A stretch of DNA of 64,000 nt from Vermamoeba vermiformis. Its lineage: Eukaryota. Location of the stretch: NCBI GenBank assembly GCA_045837725.1, contig JBEWZL010000132.1:186001-250000 (forward strand), read 5' to 3'. Shown here in pieces: positions 148 to 64,000 of this stretch. Each line of letters opens with the position of its first letter. Position 1 is the stretch's first letter. The position numbers and the translations under genes are program-made. The notes under the pieces are model-generated. The model was not told the DNA's origin, did not search any database, and saw only the letters and a program-made list of their open reading frames with translations.

Positions 148-2459
148 CTACTTGCTGTTGAGTGCTTTGAGTCGTTCTCGCAGTGCATCTAGTCCCTCGT
201 TGTTGGTCTTCACCGTGTCTTCTTCTGAGATCTGCAAGAACCAATCAGATATTTCGTGCGATATATTTAGCAACGATGCGCTATCAATAGTGTTGTACTA
301 ATGTTCAGAAACGCAATGTCTCGTCGCTTTACTTCCTATCACTCGCACGTACCTTCACTTCGTTCTTTTCGTAGCGGAATTTGAGTCCCTCAGGCAGATC
401 TGACTTGGGTTGTGATACAGCGTTGGATTCAGTGCTTGTGGTCGTCGGCTCATCAGACGAACCCTCCAACACGATTCCTGTTACAACTATTAGCGATGCA
501 AAACGCTCGCAGCACATTTGTTTGATTTCCTAAACTAGCAAAAACATCAAAGAATTTATCCGCAAACGGTAAATGGATTGTCAGAAAATTTCTATTCTAA
601 TTCTGTACATACCGTAAAGGTTGTCTTCATGAACCACCGCTGTTTCAGTGGCAGGGGTTGCTTCGCTAACTACTACAGGTTCACTTGCGCGTTTCTTCTC
701 GTATTCTTCGCGACGTTTCTGACACCAGCTGCTGCTGCACTCCAGATTCGGATTCATGCGATAGCTCGGGAAAAAGTTCTTCATCGCGTTGTAGCCAAGG
801 TAATAAGACACTTCACCGAACTGCAATAAATATCTGCGCGCAGGGTCAGTCGCGAGAATTGAGTTCGTAAAGTGTAACAAGAAAATTCCTCAATTTAGTC
901 AATTTACTAAAATTGCGTGGAATATTCAAGCCGAGGTCTAAAAAGAGCGCGGCTATTTCGCCGGCGCGGCTATTTCGCGCATTATTTAACGCGTTCAGTG
1001 AACGATTTTAACAATAAAAAGGTGCCGTGATAAGGAGTGCGGCAGAAATGTTGAAAACCTTTGGAACCAGTGCGAGTAACACGCGACTAAAAATAGCAGC
1101 GCTGTATCTCGTACGGGAGATTACTTACTTGAGCGTGTTCTGCACCAACATGGCCGCGACCATTGACATCGTAGTGGGCAATGAAGCTGCGCACACACCC
1201 TGTGAATGACACGTCAACTGCAGTTCTCGAATGACACTTTGACACGTGATTTGACACCTGTCAGCAGTTCAGACCACTCACCTCACGCTTCAACGTGCGC
1301 TCGTCAATGCCACTGGCAACAATGAGTGGTGGCGCGCATTGAAAGCAGGCTGTGATACCTGGCTCAATGAGCTGAATGTGACCACTCATCGCGTCCTCGG
1401 AGACACCTGACTCCATCCACGGCTGATTTAACTCCACACAGGCCTGGGACACAGCGTTAAAGCAGCTCTATGCGTCATATTTAGTGCTGCCTAGTGTTAC
1501 CTGATTGATGGCCATGCGTGCCTCGAAATTGTCCACGCAGCCCAACACGAGGTCGACTGGCCCCTCTGTCAAACTGCCGTGCTGCAAGCGTTGACAAAAG
1601 TGTGCAAAGTGCTCGACCTAGTGGTGCATGATGAGTTCGTATATTCAATAGTATAATATATATTCGATAGCGTAGTGTGCTGTTGTACCTTGGTGATATT
1701 GTAGTTGTAGATCTCAAACTTAACATCGGGGTTGATTTGTGACAGACTTTGTTGTGCAGCTTCAGTCTTCGTCAGACCAACTTGATTGGGTGTATAGAAC
1801 AGTCTGTATTGTTCGCGGTCAGTAGCCGAATTAAAACCAGATCTGGCGTGAAGATCTTTTGCCCACGTTTATCGTACCTGTTCATGTTGGCGAGCTCGAC
1901 CTTATCATAATCAAATAGCAACAGCTTGCCAATACCGCAGCGCGTCAACATTTCAGCAGCCACTGAACCCACACCACCGAGACCAATGATCGCGACGGAA
2001 AACGAGCGGATTTTCTAAAGGCAAAATTAAAAACTGCTGGCAAATCTTCGCTAATAACTTTTGTGTTGCCGTGTGTAATCTACAGATTAATCGGCAAGAT
2101 ATTCAGAAACACGTAGAATTGAAAGAATTTTGACCAACTTGAATTAGTATGTCAATTTCTGCAAGAGAATCTAATTGCTTAAAACGTACTTCATAATTTT
2201 TTACAATACCCATGCGCTTCAGTGCCATCAATCGACTGTATATAAATGAGAGTGAGTAATTGGATCGACAAGATCTCAAAAATTGTAAAATTAATTTTCT
2301 CCTCATTTAAATAATGTTATACCTGTACGGGTTGCTATCAACCACTTCCTCGCTCATACTTTCAATTTTTTTGCGAATATTGCCCTTCTTCAGAGCTTCC
2401 ACTTCGGATTCCAACTCTTGGATTCGCTTCTTGTAATTCTCAAGTTCTTGCTGACTCAT
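148..2459 (-). CDS. UBA5: UFM1-activating enzyme E1 (multi-exon)
   Basis: Exons give [86 protein letters not shown] and [22 protein letters not shown] at 2459, TAG at 148-150. Confidence 0.95.
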
Positions 2460-2603
2460 GGTGAGGTTGCTGTTATTTAATGAGCTTGATTATGGATGTG
2501 CGAGTGCTCTGATTGAGGTAAATAGGTGCCAAAAAATTAAAATTACTTTATCGATTTTATTTCAATAATCGACCACAGATCCGCAACTTCAAATTCAACC
2601 ACA

Positions 2604-4042
2604 ATGCCTTTCCGTGCCTTTTATATCGATACTGGTGTTGAAGTCTCTGAACAAGACTTGTTAGCCCTTGGAGTTGAACACTTCCAGATCAACGCCGATC
2701 AAGTTGATAAAGAAGGCACTGAGCCCACTCTTGAAAAAATCTGCATTGAACGCAACTACAATTATAAGGATGTGGTAAGTATTATTGTACGAGCTTCGCT
2801 AGTAATTAAGAATATTCTGGATCGTCTGAAAATAATTCCTGAAACAATTCCCGCAGTAATTAATAGCGGTACTAACAGGTCCACACTACCCCTGAAACCT
2901 TGCCTAATTACGAAGAGAAGATGAAGATGTTCTTCCAAGAGTACGTACTTTGTTTCGCCGCGGCGGATCCAATCGCTGTTTAAGAGTGTCAATAGACCTA
3001 CAAAATATTAATACATAATATAATATAGACACTTGCACACAGACGAGGAGATCAGATTGTTCTTGAGTGGCAGTGGTTATTTTGATGTGCGCGACAAAGA
3101 AGACAAGTGGATCCGCATCCACTGCTTTAAGAACGACATGATCGTCTTGGTGCGTATTAGTCTTGATTATACAGCCTGCATTATATTAACAATACACGTA
3201 GCCTGCCGGTATCTATCATCGCTACTCCAATGATGAAAACAAAGGTGGCAAAGTGATGCGTTTCTTCTGCGGTGAGAGCGGATCTGCACGAGACTAAGTA
3301 CGACAGTAATAGCAATACTAACACCACATGATATATAGGTGTGCCTGTTTGGACTCCTCACAACCGCGGCACTGAGACTGATGTCATGTCGCAGCGCAAG
3401 GACTACGTGACTAAAGTGCTCAAGTCTGGTACGAGTCAGCATTAATTTCGTTCACTGAACCATTCGTTCACTGAACACTATCGAAAATTGAATCTTTGCT
3501 TTTACTTGTATAAAAACTAAAACTCTCATTCCGCCAATCTTTGCGCAAATTCTCTAATGACACGTGTCAGCTCCAGTCTCGTACCGCGAAGTGCTGGTCA
3601 AGTCCCCCGCAGAGTTCGAGAGTGAGTTCACTGCTGCACGTGCCACACAACCCGCACAACTGCTCGTCTGGGTCACCGCGGATTGGTGTCCTGACTGCGT
3701 GCAAGCCAAGCCCGTGCTCACCAAGCACTTCAATGAGCTGCAGAATGCTGTCGTGTTGAAGTGCGATGTCGATCGCAACACGTGAGTAATAGCCTTATTT
3801 GGCAAGTGCCTCCGTCACTGACACGTGAGTAGTTGGAAGGGCAATCCAGACTATCCGTATCGCACGCACCCACAGCTCAAAGTACAACGCATTCCCACAC
3901 TGATCAGATTCGGCAAGGTACGCTGATTGACACTTTTGACACTTTAACTGACCTCTCACAGCAAGGACCTCGTGAACGATTGGTGGAAGGTGAGTGCTAC
4001 GACACAGCCCTGGTTGAAGATTTCTTTGCCGTTCAGCTCTAA
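2604..4042 (+). CDS. ADI1: Acireductone dioxygenase (ARD cupin), probably fused to a TXNDC17/TRP14-like thioredoxin domain
   Basis: [30 protein letters not shown] and PVWTPHNR; intron 3429-3570 joins in frame to a WCPDC thioredoxin domain ending at TAA 4042. Confidence 0.88.
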
Positions 4043-4107
4043 GTTGTCGTTCAGTGAATGGAATAAATACGCTGTTTATTTTACAAAATGTTTGACACGT
4101 GTCACAC

Positions 4108-7100
4108 TCAGTCCGAGTCTGAGAACGAATCGTCCTCGCGCATGCTGTCTTCAATCATGCTGTCAGCCATGCTGTCCATGCTGCTGTCCATCGAACTCAT
4201 GCGGCTGTCAGTGCGGCGACTGTCACTCGAGCTCTTCTTGCCTGATTTGGACTTTTTGTCCTTTTTAGTCTTGTACTTGTCCTCGACATCGTTGAACTTG
4301 ACATTCATGTCCTCCACGGAGGCAGTGAGCGTTTGATTCTTGTAGCAGAGCTTGATGAGGTCTTCAAAGTGTTTGTAGCTCTGAATGAAGTACTCTTTGA
4401 AGCACAGCCACACGACTGGTATCAGGCCCTCGCCACTCGATACCTCGTGATTGATGCGCTTGTACTCGGTGTACAGACCTTTCTTCAACTGTAGAGTACC
4501 GTAATTAGTATCAATAGTGCCTATTGAGTGTAAAGACATACTCTGTCAGCGGTGTACTTGGTGATCAGTTTGCCGAGCACTTGATTTGAAAATGCATTCT
4601 GGAACTGCACGGTCTCGGGGGGCATGGTCTTGCTCAACTTCTCCACGCCATCGAAGAATTCCTGCAATGACAGTGTTAGCACATTGACGTCTTATTCGCG
4701 GCACACTACGCACAAACAACGTCTTGAATCGCTTCTCCACCAAGTACTTGACGTAAGTGTCGCGACTCTCCTTGTAGTAGCTCGTTGCCTTCTCCACATA
4801 GGGCTTGAGCACTGCTGCATTGCGCTTGCTGACATTGAGATAGAAGTGATGGAAGTTCTCGAATTTGAGCACGAGACAGGCCAGTGTTTCGCGGTCTGCG
4901 TCACCTTTGGCCATTTGCATCGCATAATTGGTCAGTCCTTCAGCACCGCTCTTGATCTTTTTGGCCATTTGTTTCACTTTAGACCTGCAGACAATGATTA
5001 GACTATTAATAATGGCACCGTATACGACGTACTTCTCGCCCTTGAGTAGTGTGGCAATATCGACATTGTTGCTGTTGACCTCTTCTTTCTTGGACTTGGG
5101 GGTCGCGAGCTCTAACAGCCACTCAAACAGCGCATCAACGAGCTGCAAGTAACACTTCTCCGCGAGTTCACGTGCCTCATTCGCACTGGCACCGTTCTCC
5201 TCGAGTCGTTCCATGAACACAATGAACTTCTTGACGTGTGCCAGCACTCCCGCTCGACGCACACGCACTTCGGTGTCTTTGATGTAGTCCACTTGCACGT
5301 CCTAGCCAGGTGTTAGTGCCAGCCACTGATACACTCGACCACTTACAATGAACTTGGTGATGCGTTCTAAGATCTGTTCTTTGAGCTTGGTGAGAATGGA
5401 TATGATGAACGGACTCGTCTTGCTGTACTCCTGCTCGTACTTGACTGTGTCGACCCAGAATGACATGGCATAGCTGTTGACAGGTGTCAATCAATGGTCT
5501 GCACAAATGTCACGTGACTTACAATCGATCGGTCTTGTATCCGAAGTTGATGAGGGCGGTGAGGTGCGACAAGAGTTCCTCGAAACAGACTGCCACGTGT
5601 TGTTGCAGGGCCTCGCTCTCATCGGCCGTGAAGTTGAACACATCGGCACTGAACTTCTGCTCGCTCATCACGAGGGGCAGCACATTCTTCAGGCACGAGG
5701 TGTACACTTGCGTCACTTTCATCTTCACTTTCTTCTTGTCGCTCAGTGTGCCACTCATCTTGCGCTTGTCACTCGTGTTGGACTTGGTGTCCACTTCCGA
5801 GTCCGAGTCGTAGTCCGCACTGTGACACGTGTCAATCAGATGTACGTGCAAGTGTTAAGTACTTACAATGAGCCCACACTCATGTCATCGTCTGAGCGAT
5901 CATCACCGCTGTTCGAGTCATTTGTGGCTGTTGCTGATTGGCCAGTCAAGCGTGCTGTCACCTCTGCGAAATGAAGGTGGTTAGTGTGCTAGTCACATGA
6001 ATGTGAGTATACTACCGAGTACTTACTCTCTTTGAAGCCCACACTCGTAGACTTGAACGAGACTACCAAGGTGTCAGTACGGTCAAATTCATGAACGGTA
6101 ACTTACACTTAGAGCTCTTCTCGCGCATGATGGTCTTTTTCAGTGAATGGAAGTAATCGCGCAATTCTTTTTTGTACAGTTCAGCGAATTTCTGCACGTA
6201 AGCTTTGCGCACATTTTCACACTCTTCAAAGTCAAACTCTTTGAGGCGATGAATGAGTGTCTTGTAGGCTTGAATGGGCTCCATAAAGCTCTTTTTGTTC
6301 ATGTAGATGATCTCTGTGCTGTCATTAGTCCTGACACATGGCGGCTAATCGATCCGTACCTGAGGACTCAGTCGGCATTCGCTTTGGCAGTCCTTCTTGT
6401 GCCTTGTTGAACAGCGCGTTGAACTGCTCGGCAATGTACTTGCTGAATCGCACTGAGAATGCCGTGCTCAACTTCTTGAACTGTTCCATTTGTTGACTGA
6501 ATTGGGTGCATGTCAGTGCGTGACACGTGTTAAACAAGTACGTACATGATAGCGAGCATTTCAGTGATGCCAGGCTTGTGCTGCGCTTTCATCACTTGGT
6601 CGAGTTTAGAGGCAGCACGCACTGCGCTGTCGAGGCCCTTGCCCACCGCGAAATCTCCGCTGCGCAGTGTCTGAGTGGTGGCTTCATCGAGTTGTACTTT
6701 GGCCTGATAGACGTACTGTTAGTGACACTGGCAATAAAAGTATATGGCAGTATACCATGACGTCATCAATCTCCTGCAGCAGTGCTTTCTGATTGCGCGT
6801 GATGAGGTCCATCGTGTTGTTCTTCTTTTCAATCTGTTCGATGTACACGCTGATGGTCTGTGCAGTGCCAGGGTTAGTATTGTTACATCGATACTAGTCC
6901 ACTACGAGGGACGTACATCGAGCTGGTCTTGATACTCCTCCAAGTGCGCATCCACATTTGACAGTTGTTTGCTCGAATTCTTCAGCAGTCCGTTCATTTG
7001 TTTCACGCGCTCGGTGATTGCGATCAGATCGTGAATGTTTTCCTAATAAGGCAATCAACACACGAACGAGATCGATGGCACTTGGCACTTACAGTCTCGA

Positions 7101-15295: not shown

Positions 15296-16119
15296 ATGCA
15301 TTTAAATAGAGCAATATTGTTGATAGTTGCCCTGCAGCTGCTAGTACAGCGCAGCGCTGGAAATATTACGGCAGATCAGTTCAAATGTCTGTTTACTAAT
15401 TTACGCACCTCACCGAATGTAAATCAATATGTGGATGCCATTAATCAAGGTAATATCAATTAATCAGCTTAATATCATTTCCGAACTTAATTATTAATCG
15501 TGTCATTCAGCATCCAATCGCTATGCTATTACAATGCCGCGAAGGCTACCGTAAGTAGTAATAGCAATATTATACCATATATTAATACTGACGAATGATC
15601 AAGGCTCTTCATTGCACTCAGTGGTTGTAAGTACTTCCCAACACACACATCTCATCTCATGTGCCCTGACCAGACATGAGTGACTTTTACGAGCGATTTG
15701 TACTGCCAGAAAACACACTGTGCAAGTACGCAGTGCTAGTAAGTACCTACCCGTCCCCTCACGCATTCCTCACCCGTCACTAGGGTGGTTGCGCGTATCG
15801 TGGTCGCGGCGCATTCTTCGTGATGGGCAAGCCATTCTATCAACAGCTCACTGCGCACTTTGGCGTGGACTTTGTTGCTGCACCGAATGTACGTAACTGG
15901 AGCACGTGATTGACTTGACACGTGTCACTCACTGACCTCTACCAGCGCCTGTCAGAACTGCCCTATGCGATACTGTCAGCAGGGTGGTGGTGGCACGAGC
16001 TCAAGTTGAATGTGCTCGCGGATGTGGAGAACTTGGAGTCACTCACGCGCGCACTGGGCATCAGCACCAGCACCAAACTCGTCGAGTTCTGGGGCCGCAC
16101 ATTGAACTGCATGCGGTAG
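15296..16119 (+). CDS. Secreted GH19 chitinase/endolysin-like protein, probably catalytically inactive
   Basis: Signal peptide; spliced exons give YAITMPRRL, YRGRG, FGVDFVAAPN and SAGWWW..LNVLAD, resembling bacterial/phage GH19. Confidence 0.7.
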
Positions 16120-27487: not shown

Positions 27488-27689
27488 TGGGTGGGCAGTG
27501 CATTGCTGAGGGCTATTTTTAGCCCACCCTCTCTTGTAAATAACACGCACGTGCTGTAAAGAATTGCTGTCAAATTTTATTCGCGAGCGGAATAACTGTA
27601 ACAAATACTATTAATAGCCCTGGTGGATTTGCACACCTCCCAGGCGAGCAGACAGAGGTCAGTCAATGACACGTGTCACAGCGCGAGTC

Positions 27690-37523: not shown

Positions 37524-37602
37524 CGCGAGTTAGCGTTTGACACGTGTCAGTCACCGCAGAACCCCTTATTAGGCAATTCCTTTATTTGGCTATGTACATG
37601 AA

Positions 37603-38607: not shown

Positions 38608-38953
38608 GGCTGCTAGGAGCGATAATATGCTCTGACGTAATCTATTGTTTATATATACGAACCATTAATATTTGCGTATAATTGCAATTATAATTAATTC
38701 AATAATTCAATTGTTGGATCGGGATCTGCAATCGAACCAGCAGTGCTTACTTAGTGAACATTGTCCACAAATATGATACAATTACTATACTATATATATA
38801 GTATCAATGCGTTCGTGCCACAACTGTCATGTGTTGTTGGCTCGTGCGAGAATGTAGTGAAAAAGATTTGCAAAATAATCGCGTAGGAGTAGCTCACTTT
38901 GCGCAACAAATAAAGTGTGGCTGTAGTTGTATATAGTACTGCAATTAGTGACA

Positions 38954-39709: not shown

Positions 39710-39761
39710 GCGCTTGCCTTATTTGTACAAATTCTCCCGTGTATCTATAAATAGTCTTTTT

Positions 39762-44274: not shown

Positions 44275-44400
44275 GCATCATAATAATAAGGGCGTATAGT
44301 TTTGAAAATGAAATAAAAAGCGGAAATGATATTTAAACATTTATTATTCACATTGAGCTGTTCGCTGCTCGCATAGACTAGAGAGCTAAGTATATATATA

Positions 44401-47400: not shown

Positions 47401-48796
47401 CTCGAGATTGAACTCGCTCGACTCCTGCACGTAGAAGCGCGCCAGTTTGAGAGTGCCTTCGACCTCCAACACGAGGGCCTTCTTGCGCGCGTAGTAGCTG
47501 ATGGCCTCGAGCATGGCGTCGATGATCTGCTTGCGGAGATTGATGCGCTCTTCGCGCTGTGCCTGCACTTCTTTGCTGGTGCCGAGTCGGTGCTGCGCTT
47601 CATCGACCTCCTCTTTGAGACTCAACAGACACCCCGCGTGACTCTCAATCGCGGCACCAGTCCACTCGAGATCACCAATGTTCTTGCCCTGCTCGATGGC
47701 CTGTTGATAGCTGCAAAACAGACGGGTTAGCGGCGTATACCAGCGATATATACCGTTGCCAAATAAGGCGCGACGTACTAGAGGATCGCATCGGTCGGTG
47801 AGCCAGCCAGCAGCGCGTAGTCACCGAGCTGCTTCACCAAGCGACCAATGCGCCGCTTCTTGGCTGTCTTGGCGTCCTCTTGCGGTGCATCGCGATCGAG
47901 CGGCGTGTTGAGCGTGAACTCGTCTTTGACCGGCCCTGCTGTGCCCGAGAGATTGCCTAATATGGTCGACAGACTCGTGGTGGCACTCGCCTCTTCTTTC
48001 TCGCGCCGCGCAATGATCTCGCGCACATTCTTCTCGAACTGCATGACAATGTCGTAGATGAGATAGGTGAGCTCGTTGGTCAGATAGAAGGCGATGTGCG
48101 ACTGATCGTGCATCTGATCGGGCAGCACTTTGAGACTGTCGATCCCGGGATCTGTTTGATTGGGCTGCGGCTCAAAGCACAGACACATGGCGTGCACGTT
48201 GAATGCGGGACTGCTGGGCCCAGCTGTCACAGTGCCACTGTCTTTCTTGGCGCCCTTGTTGTTAGGCGTGTTGGTGGCTATATTGAGCGGCTTCAAATTG
48301 CGCGCTGCTAACTCGCTCTGAAATTCTGCAAACGTCTTGCGCAGATCTGACACTGTGTGACAGTCCACGAGACCAATGACCTGCAGTGTAGATGTTATTA
48401 TTAATGGGTGCTAATTGATAGCTGTGTAGAGGCTGGAATACTTACACCAAATATTTTGCGACAGATCTGCAATTCATCCCAATCGTGCGATTGCGGATTA
48501 TCGTGAGTAATAAATCTCAAATATACTCGATCTTTTTGCCAATCGCGATGTGGAAATACGCCTTGGAAAATTAATTATTAATTTTTGAAATAAATTTTCA
48601 AGTAATTATTGTTTAGTGCTTGGTTGTACTTACATTTTGAAGACACGTCTCGCGTTACAGTCTCTAATTCTATTACTTTAATGGACTTTAATAGATTATA
48701 ATACTCTTCGAACTTGTTGTCAGAAATGTTGCCGATCGGGAGCAACAAGATCTTGATCTCTCTCGACGATTGAATGGTCTGATCGACACTCAACAT
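44401..48796 (-). CDS. TRAPPC9: TRAPP II subunit Trs120
   Basis: IKILLLPIG, WDELQICRKIFGVIGLVDC, GRLVKQLGDYALLAGSP.DA, GYERKFAYF and GPFLY. Confidence 0.92.
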
Positions 48797-48985: not shown

Positions 48986-51830
48986 TCAACAGCGCTCAAA
49001 CACTTTGTACAACTTCTCCAAGGCCGCGACTTGAATCACCGTGCCGTCATTCGCGAAGGCACGTGGTGGCACCATGACACTGCGCAGGGCAGGCATGATC
49101 ACGTGCTCTACGGTCCACTCACGGGTCTCGAGCTCTTTCGTGCGCTGTGCGACTTCTTCAGCCGGCAGTGGATGCAGTGCATAGAACTCCGCCAACTCGC
49201 GCGAGAGTGTTTCAAAGCACTCCTGCTCGTCCTTCCACTCGACCTATCGACTGCTATGTGAGTATAATGGGCTGACAATAGCTCGTTGAAGTACGTACCT
49301 CAGTGCCGAGGCGCAAGATGAATGTGGCGAGTGCGTCAATGTCCGGCACGTAGTTGTCAATCAACAGCGGCAGTCCAACGAGATTGCCATCGTCATCGAT
49401 CTGAATGTTGAAGTACTCTTTCAACATGGCGGCTCGTGTGCGCAACAGCTCCACAATGTACTGCAGCCAATCAGCATCAGATGAACACACGATATCGATG
49501 GAGGAGTACTTACAGTGGCAATAGTCTCCTTGTCGCCATCATTCGGATCATAGCCCGAGAGTGGGTGATCGAGTGCGAGCAGGACGAGGTCGTGCACAGG
49601 GGCAGGATTGGACAGCTTGATCGTGGACATGCAGGCAAAGTTCTGCAGCACGGACTGGTACATGAGCTCTTTGCTGAGCACGCACATGTTGCACAAGTAG
49701 AGCTTGGTCTTGTACTGCAACAGCACCGATCGATCGTCAACAGCCCCCACAAAGGTGTAGTTCTTGAATATCTGTTGCAGGCCCGCGTGTCCTGCCTCTT
49801 TGACCTCACTCAGCAGATTGAGCACCGAGGTCAGTTGGGGTCTCTTGCGCTTCTTCAGCTTGGGCTTGCTGTGATACATATGTTAGTGACATGTCACACA
49901 TCCACACAACACCACTTACGCCATGGTGTGGTCGGTGTCCTCGCGATTGTTGTCGTTGTACGTCAAGTCGCTGCTCGCTTCATCATCTTCGCGCGGTCGT
50001 TTTTTGCCTTGTTTCTTGTTTGCAGTGTCAAAGTCCTCATCGACATCCATGGAAGCACCAGCGAGGGGCAGTTTGGAGGACATTTGATTGGTGTTGTTGT
50101 TGGTAGTGTTGGCTGGTGACATGAACGAGTGCAATGTTTGACTGCGCGCATCAGTCCGCACCATCTTGTTCTGATAGACAGGCTTCGTAGTGTTGGTATT
50201 GTTGCTGTTCGTGTTGTTCATGCTGCTGTTGGTGCCACTCTCCACGATATCATCAGCCATCACATTGGGCACCAGTGTTTGCTGCCGCGAGTGTCATTCA
50301 TTGAGTTCAATAGTGTCGCGAGTACGTACCTGAGTGTTGAATGTGCGCGCAGCATTGGTTGAATCCAGTTTCTGCACGACTTGCTCGCGGATCTTGTCGA
50401 TAATTTCATCCTCGTGCAAGAAGCGCACTTCACTCTTGGTTGGGTGCACGTTGACATCCACTGTGCGCGGATCCAAGTGCAAGCTGATGTACATGAAGGG
50501 GTGATTGCCCTTGGGGAGGTACAACGAGTAGACTTGTTCTATCGTCCTCTTCAGTGTGGGCGAGTCCACCAAGCGGTCTGTGCAATCAGTGTTACGACGA
50601 GTGTATTGACACGGTGTTACTCACTGTTGATAAAGAGGATAAAGGAACTCTTCTTCGAGCGATAATTCGGTGAGGTCACATAGGCGTCAACAGTGAACTT
50701 GAGCTGGTCGTCTTTGTAGTTGATCTCAAAGATGTCATTCGCGACTTTGGGTCCGAACAGCTGTTTGATGCTCTCTTTCATCGTGCTGCAGCGCTGCGTG
50801 TGCACATCAGAGGTATTCTCGCCCATCTGACTGGGTGTTAATATCAGGCCTTAGTGTCACTGTTGTGCGTACCTTTTTCAGACTGAACGACACACTGTAA
50901 TTGTGCAGGGCATATTTAGTGACTACATCGACAATCTTCAAGTACTCGTCGTTGGGCTGTTTCAGTGCTTTCTTGCGCGAAGTGATGTTGTAGAACATAT
51001 CTTCAACTGTGATTTGCGTGCCCTTGACACCTGCGCACGGCTTTGGATCTGCTGATTCGCCGTTCTTGCCTACTAGTTTGCCATCTTGGTAATACGCTCT
51101 GCAATCAATAATATATTATATCATCGTATCTATCATGCATTAATACCGTTAGAACTCACCTGTAAGCGCACGTCGCGTCAGCTGTCATGGTTACAATCTG
51201 CACGTGCGCAATGTGACTGATAGACGCAAGTGCTTCACCTCTAAAGCCAAATGTAGTGATCTTTTTCAAGTCTTCAAATCTAGGTGATAGTGATTGTTAA
51301 CAGCTAGTTATCAGTAAACGATGTGCACATACTTCTCGAGTTTCGAAGTCGTCCAACGTTCGCAAACAATCGGCAAGTCCTCTTTCTGTTACAATGAGTA
51401 AGACAAGCAGCGCCTTGTTGACAAATACACATACCTTAATGCCGCAGCCATTGTCTTGGATTTGCAGCATTTTGATGCCACCACCTTTAACGACGATCCG
51501 AATATTTGTCGCGCCGGCATCTAAACAATTTTCCATCATTTCTTTTATCGCATTGGCTGGTCTGTGAATAACCTCCCCTAAAAATAACGATACGGTTCAA
51601 TTTAAAAATTCCAAGTAGCAGATCTGAAATAAATTCTCATTACCTGCAGCAATTCTGTTCACTACAGTTGGGTCTAATTTTTTAATTCTCCTTGGCTCTG
51701 AAAAAGAGCTGTCTAAAAGTGAAGAGTCGACAGTAAGATTGGTCGAATTGCCTTCCGTTGTATCATCCACCTCATCGTCTGACCTCTGCTCATCCACATT
51801 ACGCTCTATAATCTCCGTGTCTTCATCCAT
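48986..51830 (-). CDS. MLH1: DNA mismatch repair protein MLH1
   Basis: [54 protein letters not shown] and C-terminal LYKVFERC. Confidence 0.97.
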
Positions 51831-52029: not shown

Positions 52030-53029
52030 ATGGTATGTATAAATGGCATATTCAGCACTGCTAGCAGCGATTTGTAGATATCGAAGTTGACGAACGGGCA
52101 TCCAGAATCTTGCATTCGAAGTCAAAAATACTATTAACAATAGATGTATAATATCGCATTCAGTTATTATTATTTATACTGTGCGTTACTATTGTATTTG
52201 TAGTTTTGGCTTCGAATCAGATTTTTATTATCGTTCTTTATCTTTATTATAATTATTATCGTTCGTCAATGTAATAATTTACGTTATTATAATATGAAAC
52301 GAATTATTATACAACAAATGCAGATAATTGATACTAAATAATAATTTTTTTTTAGGGTATCGACCTTGATCGTAAACACAAGAAGAACACTAACCGTAAA
52401 GTCGCCAAGTCTGACGATCCTTATCTTAAGCTTTTGATTAAGGTACATGTTAGGCAGTGGAAACATGATAATGTTGAATCCAAAAATTATTGTGGATCGT
52501 CTACGCCAATTTTATCACCACACCCAATAATATTTATTAACGCGAATTATTGTAGCTTTATGCTTTCTTGGCCCGCAGAACCGAAGCCAAGTTCAACAAG
52601 ATCATCCTCAAGCGATTGATGATGTCCAAGATGAACCGCCCTCCTCTTTCCTTGTCCCGTGTTGCCAAGTTCTTGAAGGGCAAGAACGAGAAGACCATCG
52701 CCGTTGTTGTTGGTACCGTCACTGACGACGTTCGTTTGTTGGACGTTCCCAAGATCAGCGTTTGCGCACTTCGCTTCACCGAATCCGCTCGTGCTCGCAT
52801 CGTCAAGGCTGGAGGTCAAGTTTTGACTTTGGACCAATTGGCTATTCAACGACCCACTGGTGCCAACACTTTGTTGTTGAGAGGTCCTCGTAACGCCCGT
52901 GAATCCGTTAGACACTTCCGTGGCATTCACGGCAAACACGCTGCTCCTTATGTCCGTGGAGAGTCCAAGACTGGTCGCAAGTTCGAACGTGCCCGTGGTA
53001 GACGTAACAGCCGTGGCTTCAAGATCTAA
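52030..53029 (+). CDS. RPL18: 60S ribosomal protein eL18
   Basis: ATG, intron, then [29 protein letters not shown] and FERARGRR; strong codon bias. Confidence 0.97.
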
Positions 53030-55850: not shown

Positions 55851-56975
55851 TTATTTGTTGCATTTACATGTCGCTGATGTGCCACAGTCACAAAAGAATC
55901 TGAAGAACAGATCAGTACCAGACCACGCGTCAGTGCAATAGCTACATACCCTGTGGATGTCACTGGCTCACTCAGCTTGTGGCCTGCGTGACAAATGCGT
56001 GCACAAACATCGCAACAGCCCTCAGAGTCGATCAGGCCACACGTGTAGCACTGGAACCAGACCTGTGGCGCGTATTCACGACCAGTGGCAGTGAATGTGC
56101 ACTTGTTGTTCTTGCGCGCATTCTCGACGCGTTGTGTCATCGTGTTCTGCTTCTCTTTGGCAATGGCCTGGCCCAGAGTCTCCATGATGAACTCCATCTG
56201 TGCATTGCTGATGGGTGCGTCAATGTCAGGGTCCTCCATGTGTTCGAACAACCACTCCATGGCGAGGTCAGGGTTCATGCTGTGACACGTGTCAATCACC
56301 GAGTGCTAGTCGACTGTCAAAGTGTCACTTACGAATTGAGCAGCAAGGCTTTGTTAGCTCTGTTGGCAGGGAAGCCCATGTCAATCATGGTGTTGAGGGC
56401 CTGCTCTGCGTGTGGGAATGCGCGCTTGATCTCTTGCTGTATTCGCTGTGCGGGTGTGAGCTGTGGTGGAGGGGGCATAAAGGACGAAACTATGTCCTGC
56501 ACCATGCTCTGGATCTGCTCTGTGGTAGGCTGGGGTGCCACAGGCTGTCAAACAGTGTCAGTTAGATAACACGTGCTATATATAAGCTCCTTACTGTCTG
56601 TGGTGGCGGTGCTTCAACTTTCGGCTTGGCTGTCAGCTGCAGAAATTTGAGTTGAATTCGTCGTGGTGCTAGTCTTCAATTACTTACTGAGTATAAAAAC
56701 AGCACGTGATCGTTTTCATTTACTGGCCGAAGTCCTTGTTCATCTGTAATATCTCTTCCTTGAAAAATCAATTTGGTTTCTGGTGGGATGTACAGTCCTT
56801 TGGTCGACAAAATTGCTTTAATTTTATTTTTGATGGCATTGATCTAAAATATATTTTCATTAATTATGTGATATTTTAAAATTGAGCAATTAAATTTGTT
56901 AATTACCCCTTCATTTTTCTCGACTTGAATTCTAAACGGATCTTTGACTGCCACTGTGCGCACCCAAATGTTCAT
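55851..56975 (-). CDS. UBL-UBA-UBR-box protein (UBAC1-like N-terminal half)
   Basis: KLIFQGRDI (UBL), MIDMGFP..ANKALLLN..AMEWLFEH.EDPDID (UBA) and CTF..Q.WFQCYTC..CCDVCARICHAGH..FFCDCG (UBR box). Confidence 0.85.
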
Positions 56976-58590: not shown

Positions 58591-61500
58591 TTATTTGATG
58601 GGACCCATGATCTTCTCGAGGCGAGCAATGATGTGCTTGCCGTAAGTGTACTTCTTGAGCGTGTTGATGTGGGGCTTGATCTTGTTGATGATCTTCTCGC
58701 GCTGTTCCGAGTCGCAGAGATCAATAATCTTCTGAATCACGTAGTTGGCGTATTGGTCCTTCATCATCACTTCGAGAGGGATGACGCCGTCGGGTGTTTC
58801 AGTCAAGATTTCGTCAATCATGCGAATGCGCTCTTCAGTGGTGCCGTGCTGCACACACTTCTCGATGACATTGCTCGCAAACTTGTGTTGACTGAGCTGC
58901 AAGTGTTTGCCGCGCAGTTGAATCACAATGCCGTGCTGATCTTCGGGTCGTCCGTGTTCGAGGACGTGTTGAATGACGTAGTTGCCGTACTGGTCTTGAA
59001 CGAGACTCAAGGTGCACTGCAACAACTCCTTCAAGACTGGGGCCTGCAACAAGACTTGTTCTTCACCGCAGTACTCGAGAATTCGTTGAATCACTCGGCA
59101 GCCGTAAGGATGTGTGGCCAGTTGATAGACACGACCAACAAATGTGTCGATGATGAATTGCACGTGTGAGGGCGGGACCTGTTCGATCACCTTTTGAATG
59201 ACGTGATTGCCGTTCTGGTCCTTGATGCACTTCAGCACGTGGCCTTCAAGCTCACGGACGAGTTTGGCTTGCTGATCGACACTGATGACTTCGAGGGCCT
59301 TCTGTACAACACGGCAGCCGTACATTTGAAGTGAGAGCTGCAAGACGTGACCTTGCAAGACATCGCCGAGCATGCGCTTCTGATCGGGAGTGCCGTGCTC
59401 GAAGAATTTCTGAATGACGTAGTTGCCAAAGACATCGGTCATCAATTGCAAGGCATGAGGATAGATCTCTTTGAACACCATCTGTTTCTCAGCAACACTG
59501 GCGGTCTCGAGCTTCTGTTGAATGAATCTTGAACCGTGTTGATCGCCGCTGAATTCAACAAAGTGGCCCACAAGATCCTTGAGCTCGTACTTGCGAGTGT
59601 TCTTGCTGTTGCGGAACTCTTCCAGCAAAGTGGAGCGGACGGGATGGTTGGCTGACTGAGGTTGGGCTTGCTTGGCATGTGCGGCAGGAGTGGCGTTGGT
59701 GAGTGGAGTGGGAGCAGGGTTGACAGGGAACTGTGAGGCAGCATTGGCGTAGTTGTTGCCCATGGAAGCTGAAGGAGGCATGTTGTGAGAGGGAGCGAAG
59801 GCAGCGTTGATGCTGGGAGTGGCGAGAGGGTTGTTGAATTGGCTGAATTGGCCAAACGAGGGTTGATTCATCTGCGAGTGGTAGCTCGGTTGTTGGGGAG
59901 GTTGAGCTTGCACGGGCATGCGTGTGCGAGGTGCTTGAACATTGGAGTTGAGGACGTATTGCTGTTGATAGAGGGAGGCACCAAGATTGAGATTGGGGTT
60001 CATATCATTGGGATCGTAGTACTCTGCGGATTGTGGCATGGGCATGTGTTTACCTGCGCCGTTGGATCCGGTGCGGTCGAAAGGAATACCGACAGGTCCG
60101 AACATGGCAGATTGACCGACTTGCTTGGCAGGTGAGCTGGGTCGTTGCGGCACATTAGACTTGGCATTCCAAGGACCTCCTTGACCCACAGAAGAGTACT
60201 GCGAGTTGACGGGCACGGGGATCACACCTTGCACAGGGACGGGCATTTGAGTGGGATTGCCATACATACCCTGCTGGTGATTGCCAAAGTTCGAGTAGGG
60301 GCCGTAGCCAGGCTGGTTCTTGTTCATGGGCAATTTGCCGCTGCTTGTCAGACCCATAGGTGTGGGAGTGTTGCCACGGCTGTTCTTGCCCATGTGCTCG
60401 TTCTGCAGTGAGAGACCTTGCATCTGTTGGCTCAAATCATCGTTCTGGTAGATCGAGTACGAGCCCGACGACGAGAGAGGATTGCCTGAAGGAGGCGCTT
60501 GTTGGGACATCAGATCTGTCAAGCGAGAATTGCTAGCTGTCTTCTTGAACGGCAATTTAGCATTGGCAAGGATCGGCGAGGGTGTGCGAGGGAAGTCTGA
60601 TTGAATTTTGTCCACAAGAGACTTCGGTCTGCCTCCCATTGGATTGTGGATGCCGTTACGCGGATCGTCTTCCAAATATTTCCAGCTGCCATTGTTATCC
60701 TCCGGAGCAAGATCTACGTCATATTCACATGAGAACTGTATGACTAATAACTATCCAAAAGCTGCTCTTACCTTGTCCGTCTTGCTGATCCTCGGGGTAT
60801 TCCTCATCACCATTTTCCTAAATAAATTTGTAAGCATGCATCCAATCAAAATTCTAGTATCCTCGCTGTATTAATATGATCATTTTGCTTGTTGATAATA
60901 ATATTTCAATAATTTCTTCTCGATCCGACAACTTACTTGAAACTCTAAATTAAATAAACGTTAGTATTGATTATTACAACGGTATTATAAATAAACATAC
61001 TGTTCGGTCCATTATAGAAGTTTTGTTCCCAAGAAATTAATGGAGGAGGCAAGCGGGGATCAAGCGGCCGTTGCGAGTAATAGTAGGCGTAGTAATCTGG
61101 AGTGTAGCGTACGTCGTTCGTTATTTCAGTCATAGGGGGTACATTAGCCACTACTTGTTGCTAAAAATAAAATAATCTTAAAACGTTGTTTCGATCGCAA
61201 ACTGAAAGAGGTTATTGGATTTGTAGCTTTTTTTTCGAATAGAAATAATTGCATGTATTTATTTATAATATGTGCTGTACGTAACTGTAATTATTTGATG
61301 CTAAATGAAACATCGATTATTTTAGAAAACAATGAAAAATTCAGATTTTAAAAAGATGTAGATTGGGCGCACAGCTGCCGACGAAGGCATTAAGCCCATT
61401 ACACGTCAATATTGTAATAAACATTTATAAAGCAGCATATTCGTTATTCAAATGATCGCGCCGAAATAATGTACAGCGAGTTTAATAAATTGATTTGCTC

Positions 61501-62264: not shown

Positions 62265-62688
62265 TTATCCTTCTCGCCACTGATAATTGCATCCACTATC
62301 AGCGCATTTATAGAATAATGTTGCCGGTTCGTCTGCTGACCGGATTTGCATCTCGAAATAGTAGGCCTTTAGCTTTCCGCACCGCGGGCAGCGAGCTGCA
62401 AAAAAAATATTTTAGAATTATCGCCGATATACATATACATAAAATAGCCATATAATAATTTTAACTGATTATTATGAATTATTATTTGCTTCTCCTACCT
62501 TGCGAATCTATATTCTCCCATGTACGTTGGGCTTGAACCTCGTCAGCCTTCTTTCTCTCCAAATAAGTTTTTTTACTCATGCGCTTTCTAATATCGAATG
62601 TGTAGGGACATGTTGGGCAGTACCATCGCGATCCAACACCATCCGTTTCAACCATCAAAAGGTTTGAACAACGCGGACAAAACAGCAT
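62265..62688 (-). CDS. POLR3K: RNA polymerase III subunit RPC11
   Basis: MLFCPRCSNLL, CPTCPY, CPRC and QIRSADEP..FYKC..C.YQWRE. Confidence 0.95.
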
Positions 62689-62887
62689 TATGAAGAGTAT
62701 ATATTACAAGTACCGTGGTCGACTATATTTACATACCGGTAACAGCTGATTACGCTATTTTTCTCGGGACTAAACTAGAGCTTTTCCTCCCAGCAAAATA
62801 TCGGGGAGGCAGGCGTGAAATTTTTTCAAAGTCAGTAAAACTGGTGATGTGGCTCTATTCTCTCTTGTAGTAACATTAATTAGCACG

Positions 62888-64000
62888 ATGGCCTTGAGAT
62901 CTTTTGGACGCGGTTCTAACATTCACACTGCTTTCACGCCCTCTCAACAGGCCTCGCAAGTCATCCAAAACTTGCACACGCAGATTCAACAAAAGAAAGT
63001 TAAAATTGTATGTAATAATTTAGAATATCGCTGTATTATGCAGAATTAATATTTACAATAATTTAGCTTGAGTTAGAACGTGTGATCGAACAAAAAACAA
63101 GAGAGAAAGAAGGTTTTGCAGCAACACTTCGTGTCATTAAACGCGAATTAGATGAAATTAATCAGAAAAAATCTAAAATCGTGGAAGAGAAGAATGACTG
63201 GCAACAACAAGCTGATACATTGACGCAACAACGAGATCAGTTGGTAATAAAAAATTCCGTTTTATTTTTTAAATTTACAAAAAATCGAACTAAATATCAA
63301 CCAAATTTTTTTTATCGAGCACCACGTGCTGACTATGTTTATTAGAATGCCAAAGTTGAGGCTCAAAAAACGGATCAAGGCATCCAAGGCAGCGTTCAAG
63401 GTCGTTACGATTCTGTCGTCAAGAGACTCAAGTAAGTGCACGAAAACAACTATTTTCAGACACATTTGTATTAACTTAACAATGGTAAGGCAATTGGATG
63501 CAGATCTGTCAACCTCGCACAACAACCCCTCAAAGGAGCGCGATATTCAATTAGAAATCAAGAAATTGAATGCCACTAAAGTGCACCTTAAGTGAGTACC
63601 AATGAATCAGCTAGATTACGCGAGCATTTATCTGACTGAATTGACAGGGAGCTCGAAGAGTTGGTGCAACAAGTGCGCCGCATGAAGAGTGAGGGTGACA
63701 AGTTGCAAGACAAGATTGACGTAAGTGCACTATTGACATTATCTAGGGACCCAGTTCTCATTATTGCGTGAAAAGAAACTTGCCGAAGATATCAAGCAGC
63801 TGACCGACAAAGAGAAGAAGAAGCAAAATGAGGTCAAAGAACTCGAGACCAATATCAGCGCCATTGATCGCACTGATCTCGAGCCTCGTCAAAAAGAATT
63901 GGGTCTGTTGCAGCTCGAAGTCGAAAAACACCATCAAGACCTCGCGCAAAAGAAAGAAGAACTCGACACTGAAAAGCAGTCGTTCTATCAAAAACAACAA
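62888..64000 (+). CDS. Coiled-coil protein, truncated by the window end
   Basis: Spliced exons rich in E/K/Q heptads; no family recognised. Confidence 0.7.

Follow-up and report, generated by a model that had tools for sequence, protein, structure and literature searches.

CACGTG as an iterated palindrome of gene bodies in a 64-kb window, probably from an amoebozoan lineage

In a single 64-kb stretch of DNA (the window) and in the orthologous locus of two relatives, L001 and L002, which were sampled solely there, we explored the distribution of the hexamer CACGTG. The excess of CACGTG in the window is real and goes beyond composition, and it is best read as a DNA-level iterated palindrome of gene bodies, probably in an amoebozoan lineage.

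CACGTG excess and its imprint on coding sequence

Between positions 1243 and 63328 we counted 119 copies of this palindromic motif, against 24.8 expected from dinucleotide-preserving shuffles of the window (N = 100, mean 24.76, sd 5.15, largest 37) and 14.4 under a mononucleotide model, in agreement with an earlier note on this DNA, which had tallied roughly 100 or more copies where about 15 were due by chance. With an average spacing of about one per 540 bp, CACGTG was the top-ranked hexamer by count (runner-up AATAAT, N = 80), made up 119 of the 275 ACGT cores and had the highest z-score under Markov orders 1, 2 and 3 (expected 24.3, 29.9 and 54.6); a fourth-order (maximal-order) model expects 89.6. 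CA and TG dinucleotides were over-used (1.35 and 1.47), GG and CC under-used. The excess is limited to perfect CACGTG and one-letter variants are not depleted as a class; only AACGTG and CACGTT were clearly scarce (8 and 8 vs about 21 each expected), and CATGTG and CACATG were low under the dinucleotide model alone. Perfect copies stood to one-letter variants in a ratio of 0.35–0.65 in the genic classes but of 0.04 in AT-rich DNA, and one-letter variants to two-letter ones in a steady ratio of 0.13–0.16 in genic and AT-rich DNA alike.

The motif bends synonymous and even amino-acid choice in ORFs. These (23 kb) contained 62 copies, compared with 24.1 in synonymous-codon shuffles (N = 500, maximum 35), 10.9 under codon permutation and 34.9 (sd 3.9) in shuffles keeping protein, codon usage and all dinucleotides (N = 150, maximum 44), so that the excess survives the very kind of shuffle under which, the earlier note had said, it might disappear. 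Copies were found in all three reading frames, as well as in introns and 3' regions, and an approximately tenfold synonymous skew toward CACGTG in two of the three frames extended across ORFs generally: [SPTA]-Arg-[VADEG] contexts were written NCA-CGT-G in 24 of 57 cases (about 2.4 expected) and x-Thr-[CW] contexts xxC-ACG-TG in 8 of 11 (about 0.8 expected), the rare codons CGT (20% of Arg) and ACG (21% of Thr) being about ten times over expectation when completing the motif. His-Val dipeptides numbered 39 (16.9 expected, 2.3x; Val-His, the reverse order, 16) and 30 of them were written CAC-GTG (19.1 expected); overall, CAC accounts for 84% of His codons and GTG for 58% of Val codons. Oligonucleotide bias in ORFs was strand-symmetric overall (correlation of z-scores between words and their reverse complements 0.66, tetramers).

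The flank preference of CACGTG, R-[T/G/A]-CACGTG-[A/C/T]-Y in the window, is motif-specific. Among 238 half-sites the leading flanks were AT (40), GA (38), AG (36) and GT (35), enriched 3.4x, 2.3x, 1.7x and 2.3x, respectively, relative to other CAC triplets. On the sense strand, 5' flanks (GT 14, AG 13, AT 11, GA 9) and reverse-complemented 3' flanks (GT 14, AT 12, AG 9, GA 8) showed the same set (RT, GA, AG) on both sides, which argues for two-fold symmetric recognition at the DNA level, and this strand symmetry suggests that double-stranded DNA is what is recognised. Of the extended forms, RTCACGTGAY was preferred most, RT half-sites amounting to 75 of 238, with GA and AG almost equally frequent and hence no single flank consensus.

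Compartments, genes and a 12-mer class

The observed count exceeded expectation 3.9-fold in coding-like DNA, 7.1-fold in intron-like gaps and 6.2-fold in other DNA with GC of at least 0.42, while AT-rich non-coding DNA (15.6 kb) had no excess (2 copies vs 2.1 expected, ratio 0.9); the description of the motif in the earlier note as saturating thus holds for exons and introns, not for the whole window. Density climbed with local GC (rho 0.44) and was highest in short introns, at about 7 per kb (9 copies in 21 strictly called introns, 1,291 nt). On a crude gene map, convergent-gene gaps held 17 copies in 4.6 kb and divergent-gene gaps 7 in 11.0 kb. A TIR-bounded AT-rich element (23027-24063) had no copy, and AT-rich DNA was generally without the motif.

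Gene-to-gene density ranged from 0 to 10 per kb, with significant over-dispersion (chi-square 74, 33 df, p = 5.5e-5). Roughly 15 of about 25 genes had at least two copies, which ran along whole coding regions with no clustering near gene starts. The dense genes were seipin, Vps39-like, TRAPPC9, Sec3 and enoyl-CoA hydratase, the poor ones RPL18, PUF, Mlh1, DEAD helicase and RNase P p29, and motif-poor genes were low both in contexts able to encode CACGTG and in the share of them used (PUF, 2 of 6). Seipin used 10 of its 12 such contexts, with ten copies in 1 kb and in all three frames; the earlier count was about 11. The reported absence from RPL18 was borne out, and that from the Myb gene only for the Myb-domain exon (10843-11184, no copy), since the ORF immediately downstream (11711-12817) has one at 12402.

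A 12-mer built on the motif, TGACACGTGTCA, occurred 11 times in the window against 0.01 expected, and GTCACGTGA and its reverse complement nine and seven times, respectively. The ten positions previously listed for the 12-mer all carry it, three with a shift of one base (4093, 38070 and 43406), and an eleventh lies at 15916. Copies of the 12-mer go with introns and the 3' ends of genes (Table 1) and form a class of their own, younger and specific to this lineage. They overlap TGACAC, the branch-site word, and in many cases continue into the acceptor (TGTCA(C)AG); several 5' splice sites read CAC/GTGAGT. Introns bearing the motif (N = 8) folded no better than shuffles (z -1.24 to +1.13, mean about 0), and the same was true of introns without it (N = 10). 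Within short introns we also observed GCCTTATTTGG, a CArG-like, transcription-factor-like word (11 vs 0.69), and its presence there suggests that introns of this compact genome may host protein-binding sites.

Table 1 Features of the window bearing or lacking CACGTG and the 12-mer.
Feature	Positions	Strand	Details
58-nt intron, two CACGTG	42960..43017	+	predicted from sequence (GT..AG, branch motif and an uninterrupted frame); one CACGTG directly after 5' splice site (GTACGT-CACGTG); 12-mer CTGACACGTGTCA at 42998-43009 on branch-site word
49-nt intron	5474..5522	-	CACGTG just past GTAAGT; variant TGACACCTGTCA (5478-5489) ahead of acceptor
53-nt intron	56280..56332	-	ends ...GATTGACACGTGTCACAG; 12-mer 56283-56294
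12-mer, intron 3' end	5823..5834	-	...CTGATTGACACGTGTCACAG
12-mer, intron 3' end	3558..3569	+	...CTAATGACACGTGTCAG
12-mer, 5' half of short intron	43406..43417	+	enoyl-CoA hydratase-like gene
12-mer in putative intron	15916..15927	+	further CACGTG at 15903
Variant TGACACCTGTCA directly after putative 5' splice site	17366..17377	+	putative intron ends TACTAATGACACGTGAGTAG (CACGTG at 17410)
Variant, 3' end of putative intron	39860..39871	-	TGACAGGTGTCA on minus strand
12-mer, short convergent gap	4093..4104	.	thioredoxin-like (plus) / Sec3 (minus)
12-mer, convergent gap	27667..27678	.	Vps39-like (plus) / ORF 27693-27983 (minus)
12-mer, 145-nt convergent gap	37538..37549	.	RNase P p29 (plus) / seipin (minus); CC variant in L001, nothing in L002
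12-mer in seipin	38070..38081	-	Val-Thr-Arg-Val; sole one clearly coding; common to L001, absent from L002
12-mer, context uncertain	21855..21866	.	at end of minus-strand ORF 21867-22661; possibly intron
Variant TGACACCTGTCA within Vps39-like gene	26914..26925	+	context uncertain
Variant TGACACCTGTCA in unannotated GC-rich DNA	1252..1263	.	3 nt past CACGTG at 1243
AT-rich divergent (promoter-side) spacer	38563..38947	.	example; no CACGTG, within motif-dense region
Seipin ORF, densest gene	37603..38607	-	single exon; Pfam PF06775, 3.2e-28
CNH/Vps39-like gene	24289..27484	+	15 CACGTG in exons and introns; Pfam CNH, zf-Vps39_C
TRAPPC9/Trs120-like gene	44404..47820	-	13 CACGTG, all within 3' two-thirds; Pfam PF08626
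Pumilio (PUF) gene, motif-poor	58594..60750	-	2 CACGTG in 2.2 kb
Mlh1-like exons, motif-poor	49424..51115	-	0 CACGTG
RPL18 exon	52556..53029	+	0 CACGTG; alone not significant at 2.4 per kb

Relatives and competing explanations

L001 (13 vs 1.6) and L002 (20 vs 4.6) likewise had CACGTG as their most frequent hexamer, with the same GC dependence as in the window, and the excess is thus a clade property. Per-gene levels in L002 resembled those in the window: seipin has ten copies in both the window and L002, and the gene at 40.9–42.4 kb has none in either. Single sites turn over and are at most weakly conserved: 13 of 26 were kept against a local background of 34% (p ~0.06), and synonymous third positions were identical in 28 of 34 cases inside the motif vs 994 of 1,465 outside (p = 0.09). 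With conservation only marginally above background, a neutral drive fits these numbers as well as selection does. Multi-nucleotide and non-synonymous changes were among the gains (for example, L002 GCA-CGT-GAC vs window GCC-CTG-GAC). Of the three 12-mers that lie in introns of the aligned region, none was kept in the orthologous L002 introns.

Such a neutral molecular drive, the main rival though we consider it unlikely, would make CACGTG through sequence-specific repair, through mismatch correction linked to methylation or through gene conversion with a bias; in DNA that is GC-rich, transcribed or recombining, the functionless motif would arise at a rate above that of its decay. Elhai reportedly proposed this kind of model for HIP1. 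It would account for sites that barely exceed background conservation while density is kept in three lineages, for gains by multi-nucleotide and non-synonymous changes, for a density that tracks local GC and for the strand symmetry of ORF bias, as expected of a DNA-level mutational signature; HIP1 provides a precedent, the abstract of PMC4390886 postulating such a repair system. Nevertheless, one-letter variants other than AACGTG/CACGTT are not clearly low and stand in an equal ratio to two-letter variants in genic and AT-rich DNA, AT-rich spacers beside dense genes have no excess, so that the drive would need to be confined to particular regions, and strong differences between genes over a few kilobases are hard to obtain from a general repair bias.

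It is improbable that the copies are ordinary regulatory E-boxes, that is, homotypic clusters for the regulon of one bHLH-ZIP factor (membrane traffic, lysosome or lipid) which, for lack of intergenic room, sit within genes. The identity of the dense and poor genes is consistent with such a regulon, as is an enhancer-cluster-like conservation of per-gene density amid site turnover, and the favoured forms GTCACGTGAC and ATCACGTGAT are presumably similar to TFE/CLEAR and SREBP E-boxes. However, a motif present at least twice in roughly 15 of about 25 genes is too widespread to mark a regulon, the copies lie along whole coding regions and not near gene starts, promoter-side spacers lack them (on the crude gene map), and the tenfold synonymous skew holds for ORFs generally.

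Even more doubtful is an RNA-level signal, with CACGUG or UGACACGUGUCA acting in the primary transcript for splicing, 3'-end formation or surveillance. The restriction of the excess to transcribed-looking DNA with a peak in introns, the contacts of the 12-mer with branch-site word and acceptor, the CAC/GTGAGT splice sites and the three 12-mers between convergent gene ends would suit it, but flanks are alike on both sides of the sense strand where asymmetry would be expected, the densest stretch is the intron-free seipin exon, folding of the eight introns with the motif does not surpass that of shuffles, and the aligned intronic 12-mers (0 of 3) are not conserved in L002.

A by-product of preferred codons, CA/TG-rich dinucleotides and splice-signal words alone is very improbable and largely refuted, since the His and Val codon bias, the skewed dinucleotides, the fourth-order expectation and the copies that are splice signals are outweighed by an ORF count above all 500 synonymous and all 150 dinucleotide-keeping shuffles, by the rare-codon skew, by the first rank under Markov orders 1 to 3 (high-order models being inflated by the motif's own sub-words) and by the same excess in non-coding GC-rich DNA.

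A possible reader of gene bodies and known iterated palindromes

We tentatively favour the possibility that an abundant dimeric reader of the E-box type uses the CACGTG copies of gene bodies as its sites, their density being kept by weak selection. This two-fold symmetric protein would bind CACGTG in double-stranded DNA. Given the preference for RTCACGTGAY over other extended forms, it would most likely be a bHLH-ZIP-like E-box binder acting as a homodimer, and it would work on chromatin that is transcribed and richer in GC but leave AT-rich promoter spacers alone. Weak selection, rather than biased repair, would hold the density per gene and not individual sites, so that sites come and go while the level of the gene stays. 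Coding sequence fits the motif in via synonymous choice (NCA-CGT-G, xxC-ACG-TG) and extra His-Val, and introns, less constrained, hold it at the highest density. The 12-mer, TGACAC[G/C]TGTCA, may have arisen where the CACGTG core was extended on TGACAC, the branch-site word of introns, and would have spread recently in this lineage through introns and short convergent-gene gaps.

Classical E-box factors act from promoters. Against an E-box reader, CACGTG is missing precisely from the promoter-side AT-rich spacers, about one site per 540 bp far exceeds the needs of a regulon, and the flanks lack one consensus. Separately, the correlation between density and GC could point to a recombination- or repair-linked process.

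The HIP-like palindrome proposed in the earlier note is upheld by the occurrence of CACGTG in three frames, introns and 3' regions, by its survival of shuffles, by forced codon and amino-acid choice, by strand-symmetric flanks and by its rank in the two relatives; the proposal needs amending in that the motif is not uniform (AT-rich intergenic DNA without excess, genes over-dispersed), conservation of individual sites is weak at best and the 12-mer forms a class of its own. In contrast to HIP1, one-letter variants in the window are neither depleted nor biased to outer positions; in its statistical behaviour, the CACGTG of the window is similar to the cyanobacterial iterated palindromes, themselves unexplained.

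Excess of CACGTG and its imprint on codons and proteins

The 64-kb window held 119 CACGTG copies, against 24.76 ± 5.15 (maximum 37) in 100 dinucleotide-preserving shuffles. When all hexamers were compared, CACGTG ranked first by count and, under Markov models of orders 1, 2, and 3 (expectations 24.3, 29.9, and 54.6), also by z-score, and 119 of the 275 ACGT cores in the window were flanked by C and G. For coding DNA, we compared the 62 copies present in 34 high-scoring ORF segments (23,247 nt) with three null models. Permutation of all codons gave 10.9 ± 3.1 copies, permutation of synonymous codons within each ORF, which keeps both protein and codon usage, gave 24.1 ± 3.5 (maximum 35 in 500), and the strictest null, made of synonymous swaps with every dinucleotide count fixed, gave 34.9 ± 3.9 (maximum 44 in 150). 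An earlier note on this DNA had staked its claim of an excess on a codon- and dinucleotide-preserving shuffle, and the excess outlived it. No clear period, nucleosomal or helical, was found at short range in the pairwise CACGTG distances of the 64-kb window, where chance alone would give about as many neighbour gaps of 12–16 nt as the five observed. A general perfecting of palindromes was rejected, the palindromic 8-mer excess being made up of a few specific words and AT-rich words.

All three reading frames contributed CACGTG copies in ORFs (30, 24, and 8 copies). His-Val dipeptides numbered 39 against 16.9 expected from amino-acid frequencies (Val-His, 16), and 30 of these 39 pairs were spelt CAC-GTG (19.1 expected). 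Likewise, the spelling NCA-CGT-G was used in 24 of 57 [S/P/T/A]-Arg-[V/A/D/E/G] contexts (about 2.4 expected, CGT making up 20% of Arg codons and NCA 13–27% of the NCA families), and xxC-ACG-TG in eight of 11 x-Thr-[Cys/Trp] contexts (about 0.8 expected). Therefore, both synonymous choice and protein sequence are bent toward CACGTG. Overall, 62 of the 107 ORF contexts able to encode the word were used, and in motif-poor genes such contexts were few and the share of them used was low.

Dinucleotide usage in the ORFs was uneven, with GG (0.58), CC (0.71), and TA (0.46) depleted, CA (1.35), TG (1.47), and GC (1.23) enriched, and CpG undepleted (0.96). Several palindromes were nearly absent from the window (CCTAGG 0, CCCGGG 1, TCTAGA 2, TCCGGA 2, and ACCGGT 2 copies, against 12–17 expected).

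Compartments, genes, and flanks

We assigned the window to compartments with a crude self-trained coding map (codon log-odds in a sliding window), the boundaries of all classes being approximate. Coding-like DNA (29.2 kb) carried 69 copies (observed/expected within the class 3.9), intron-like short gaps between same-strand coding segments (3.3 kb) carried 11 (7.1), and other DNA with GC ≥ 0.42 (15.9 kb) carried 37 (6.2). The word had been described in the earlier note as saturating exons and introns, which holds, and it also lies in 3' gaps. The window as a whole is not saturated: AT-rich non-coding DNA (15.6 kb) had two copies where 2.1 were expected (observed/expected 0.9). Among 21 introns called strictly from sequence alone (GT..AG ends, a branch motif, a continuous frame, and a stop codon upon retention; 1,291 nt), eight contained nine copies, or about 7 per kb. 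Gaps between convergent genes had 17 copies in 4.6 kb, and divergent, promoter-side gaps had seven in 11.0 kb. In the three genic classes, the ratio of perfect CACGTG to one-letter variants stood at 0.35, 0.65, and 0.43, falling to 0.04 in AT-rich DNA. Since the ratio of one-letter to two-letter variants was 0.13–0.16 in every class, only the perfect word is affected. By position, one-letter variants were rarest at the outer letters (76, against 144 at positions 2/5 and 129 at positions 3/4), and the depletion of one-letter precursors that would signal conversion was not found, save for AACGTG/CACGTT.

Density also differed between genes, and CACGTG was over-dispersed among ORFs relative to Poisson (chi-square 74, 33 df, p = 5.5e-5). 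It reached 9.4 per kb in seipin and 7–10 per kb in parts of the Vps39-like gene, was 0.9 per kb in Pumilio, and was zero in the Mlh1 exons, the 5' kilobase of Sec3, and the first DEAD-helicase exon; RPL18 (474 nt) also had none, which is not significant on its own. The 3' quarter of the window (49–64 kb) was far poorer in the word than the middle. Thus, CACGTG marks GC-richer, transcribed-looking stretches, to a degree set per gene.

The window is eukaryotic, gene-dense DNA, with Pfam matches to seipin, TRAPPC9, Pumilio, Sec3, Vps39-like, DEAD helicase, Mlh1, RPL18, cyclophilin, Myb, and others. The closest named relatives of its Pumilio domain were amoebozoan (Ceratiomyxa 73%, Arcella 70%, Stereomyxa 69%), followed by early fungi at ≤66%, on which basis the organism is probably amoebozoan. 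Rfam and tRNA scans of the window gave no match.

When the 69 coding-like copies were oriented in the sense direction, their 5' flanks (GT 14, AG 13, AT 11, GA 9) were mirrored by their reverse-complemented 3' flanks (GT 14, AT 12, AG 9, GA 8). The CACGTG signal is two-fold symmetric and lies at the DNA level, since a signal at the codon or RNA level would be unlikely to yield such flank symmetry. The flank preference belongs to CACGTG and not to the background, because the flanks were enriched relative to CAC triplets without a following GTG (AT 3.4-fold, GT 2.3-fold, GA 2.3-fold, AG 1.7-fold). The RT flanks (AT plus GT) made up 75 of 238 half-sites, GA (38) and AG (36) were also favoured, and the most enriched extended form was RTCACGTGAY. 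Moreover, the oligonucleotide bias that remained in ORFs after synonymous shuffling was strand-symmetric (r = 0.66 between tetramer and reverse-complement z-scores), and CACGTG is the extreme of this DNA-level signature.

A second iterated palindrome, CAGATCTG, was counted 19 times in the window against 1.5 expected and was often lengthened to GCAGATCTGC, its core AGATCT occurring 48 times against about 15–22. Unlike CACGTG, it was enriched in AT-rich non-coding DNA (13 vs 3.4), and intron-like gaps had none (0.7 expected). Separately, two 50-nt inverted repeats, 90% complementary, enclose 937 nt of AT-rich DNA (GC about 0.38). The element resembles a small, non-autonomous DNA transposon, and the earlier note may have counted it among its foreign inserts. 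It contains no CACGTG.

The 12-mer class and the orthologous locus in two relatives

The 12-mer TGACACGTGTCA, which has CACGTG at its core, occurred 11 times in the window against 0.01 expected; positions given for it in the earlier note were correct to within one base, and we found an extra copy at 15916. It is a class apart from the hexamer, and a younger one. GA/GA flank pairs of CACGTG numbered 13, against about three if half-sites were independent, and the arms TGACA and TGTCA met at a 2-nt spacing 16 times, other spacings giving 0–2. The centre of these 16 pairs was CG in 11, CC in four, and GG in one, and never any other dinucleotide, GC included. Nine of the 16 lay in delimitable short introns (called from sequence), three between convergent genes, one in seipin coding sequence, and three in uncertain contexts; none was in a promoter spacer. 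The left arm TGACAC coincides with the branch-site word CTRACAC, found in seven of the 21 strict introns, and, going by the conserved U2 snRNA sequence, this extended branch word may pair further with U2. The palindrome TGACAGCTGTCA, a TALE-homeodomain site of the MEIS/TGIF class, has the same arms at an identical 2-nt spacing, but the centre of the 12-mer is CG or CC/GG and never GC. A literature search, covering result entries, found no description of the 12-mer in any genomic context.

Introns of the window were very short, mostly 45–68 nt, with GTAAGT, GTACGT, or GTGAGT at the 5' site and the branch word yACTRAC(AC) near the acceptor. The palindrome GTACGTAC (eight copies vs 0.5) is a 5' splice site after AC or G, on either strand. 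A CArG-box-like word, GCCTTATTTGG (CC-A/T6-GG), had 11 copies with at most one mismatch in the window against 0.69 expected, several of them a few bases past the 5' splice site of short introns. Its presence in the same short introns as CACGTG suggests that these introns may carry protein-binding sites.

Positions of the 12-mer class and of other sequence elements in the window
Feature	Position (strand)	Remark
12-mer running into the acceptor as TGTCA(N0-7)AG	3558, 5478, 5823, 39860, 42998, 56283	about six of 16
12-mer at intron 5' end or middle	15916, 17366, 43406	
12-mer in short gap between convergent genes	4093, 27667, 37538	
GCCTTATTTGG	3792, 26100, 39975(-), 47759(-)	plus seven one-mismatch copies
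CAGATCTG	16313, 36703, 37027, 45917, 57488	examples
Short introns	4489-4541(-), 13418-13466(-), 49869-49919(-)	examples
Transposon-like element	23027-24063	one CACGTG 7 nt past right end (24070)

We aligned seipin with five close homologues and used this alignment to scan metagenomes, which retrieved two contigs, each covering the orthologous locus only. L001 (2,075 bp) encodes a seipin protein 91% identical to that of the window; L002 (8,682 bp), whose seipin is 79% identical, is collinear with window positions 37105-45802 (76% nucleotide identity over 8,485 aligned columns). CACGTG was the commonest hexamer in both, with 13 copies in L001 (1.6 in shuffles, maximum 5 of 200) and 20 in L002 (4.6 in shuffles, maximum 12), and in both it rose with local GC, as in the window. 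Therefore, the CACGTG excess is older than the split of these lineages; the contigs represent the same locus in other species and thus speak to breadth across the clade, not across the genome.

Per-gene density was alike in the window and L002, with ten copies in seipin in both and none in the gene at 40.9–42.4 kb in both. Single CACGTG sites turn over, and their conservation was not significant: 13 of the 26 window copies in the aligned region were intact in L002 (one more by codon alignment), against a background of 28.8% for all hexamers and 33.6% for hexamers within 60 nt (p about 0.06, n = 26 sites), and synonymous third positions were identical in 28 of 34 cases inside CACGTG against 994 of 1,465 elsewhere (p = 0.09). 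Non-synonymous and multi-nucleotide changes were among the gains (GCA-CGT-GAC in L002, GCC-CTG-GAC in the window), and between the two sequences one CACGTG had moved by a codon and an additional His-Val lay near the C-terminus. The GACACGTGTC-core class has five copies in the aligned 8.7 kb, namely four perfect 12-mers and, at 45558, one copy with a single mismatch. L002, which lacks the 12-mer altogether, has kept none of the five, those in introns (42998, 43406, and 45558) included. L001, which is the closer relative, has the CC variant at 37538. An introner or mobile-element origin of the motif-bearing introns was rejected, the same introns being present in L002 with a different sequence; hence the 12-mers changed in place and did not arrive with mobile introns.

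Between window positions 36001 and 46000, eleven runs labelled with five other organisms (B–F) contained 34–47% of the sampled words, a share close to the exonic one; most of these runs are guessed to be RNA and one is of unknown kind. In a water metagenome, 29% of the sampled words of this stretch were present. The organism thus seems to be widespread, accompanying or contaminating other samples. It is in culture, and DNA and RNA runs are available for it, three raw RNA runs under the same species label among them. From viral contigs, two motif-pair scans gave 118 and 23 loci, and no relative of the window was among them (the 23 judged by blastn, the 118 by composition alone). One locus of 11.8 kb (L061) in a 61-kb contig from a viral collection, with GC 0.64 and a composition unlike that of the window, has CACGTG as its commonest hexamer (45 copies vs 9.1 by dinucleotide expectation), which may be a case of a virus with an iterated palindrome of its own.

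Candidate readings and likeness to known systems

Any agent behind these data must read the perfect palindrome in double-stranded DNA and with two-fold symmetry, act in gene bodies while sparing AT-rich spacers, be untied to individual positions, and have a strength that varies between genes and is conserved between species. We favour, tentatively and with somewhat less than even confidence, an abundant protein of the E-box class that reads the word as a homodimer, and for which the CACGTG copies would be binding sites; their per-gene density would be kept by weak selection. RTCACGTGAY is the preference of bHLH-ZIP proteins of the Cbf1, USF, TFE, and SREBP type. Against such a reader, CACGTG is missing from promoters, where classical E-box factors act, the flank preference is not one consensus, and site conservation is not significant. 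Searching the literature for bHLH repertoires of Amoebozoa gave no usable result.

The main rival, possible but doubtful, is a neutral drive through biased repair, methylation, or gene conversion, akin to the bias proposed by Elhai for HIP1 (PMC4390886). Such a drive fits both the turnover of sites and the link of CACGTG density to GC, but one-letter variants are undepleted, AT-rich spacers are untouched, and neighbouring genes differ sharply. That the copies form an ordinary regulon of intragenic E-box clusters would suit the functions of the CACGTG-dense genes, but the word is too ubiquitous and we consider this quite improbable. The enrichment in introns fits a signal acting on RNA, a reading we regard as very improbable given that the flanks are symmetric, that the densest stretch is the intron-free seipin exon, and that eight motif-bearing introns fold ordinarily when compared with shuffles (z −1.24 to +1.13), as do ten motif-free introns. 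A pure composition artefact is excluded by the shuffles and hardly deserves any credence.

A broader possibility, which we rate as unlikely, is that CACGTG is a eukaryotic 'self' word of the HIP/DUS/Chi type, by which an amoebozoan lineage marks its own gene bodies through a dimeric DNA-binding or DNA-modifying reader, with a density set per gene. CACGTG is lacking from AT-rich spacers and from mobile or foreign DNA, so that such a word could tell native transcription units from invaders, or organise gene-body chromatin. If this were true, the pressure behind it would have rewritten synonymous sites tenfold and doubled His-Val dipeptides. 

Whichever reading holds, CACGTG is a DNA word that overrides codon preference and shifts amino-acid sequence, yet is confined to gene bodies and tuned per gene, which points to a so far unrecognised reader, writer, or repair bias on transcribed chromatin. 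In this clade, a word of this kind distorts gene finding based on codons, the discovery of motifs, and selection tests on synonymous sites.

Iterated palindromes and genome-specific over-represented words are known from bacteria, as HIP1, uptake sequences, and Chi. Our literature search, over result entries, found no iterated palindrome in a eukaryotic nuclear genome, no case of CACGTG as top hexamer, and no report joining amoebae with the motif. The likeness to cyanobacterial HIP1 (GCGATCGC) and the alternate HIPs, drawn in the earlier note as a HIP-like system, stands in over-representation, relatives, an extended form and, in part, reading frames: all are short GC-rich palindromes, hyper-abundant inside and outside reading frames (though not, for CACGTG, in AT-rich intergenic DNA), left unexplained by codon or peptide use, and common to related genomes. 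It breaks down in the size of the excess, which is just 4–8-fold for the CACGTG hexamer against 15–300-fold reported for HIP1 (PMC5861425). The function of HIP1 is itself still debated (PMC5861425, PMC4390886). CACGTG further differs from HIP1 in sitting in a eukaryotic nuclear genome, in being missing from AT-rich intergenic DNA, in the non-significant conservation of its sites, and in its outer-position variants, which are the rarest where the one-letter deviants of HIP1 are biased to the first and last positions. The HIP1 type further entails a cognate orphan DNA methyltransferase with methylated sites, and a chromosomal periodicity of 10–90 kb.

The E-box or G-box CACGTG is bound by yeast Cbf1 (RTCACRTG), USF, the MiT/TFE proteins ('CLEAR' GTCACGTGAC), SREBP, and Myc-Max. 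An E-box-class reader agrees with the identical palindromic core and with the mutual independence of CACGTG half-sites expected of a homodimer, and in part with the purine-T 5' of CAC, the most enriched flank. Contrary to bHLH-ZIP E-boxes, the copies lie in gene bodies, mostly exons and introns, and not in promoters, at about one per 540 bp, and their GA and AG flanks come close to RT in frequency.

The self-marking words of bacteria (Neisseria DUS, Haemophilus USS, and Chi) are, unlike CACGTG, non-palindromic, and are tied to known machines, namely competence receptors and RecBCD; we know of no eukaryotic counterpart, and our literature search found none. Like them, CACGTG is a genome-specific word that has built up against codon preference in coding as well as non-coding DNA, is kept as a density and not as single sites, and is lacking from foreign DNA.
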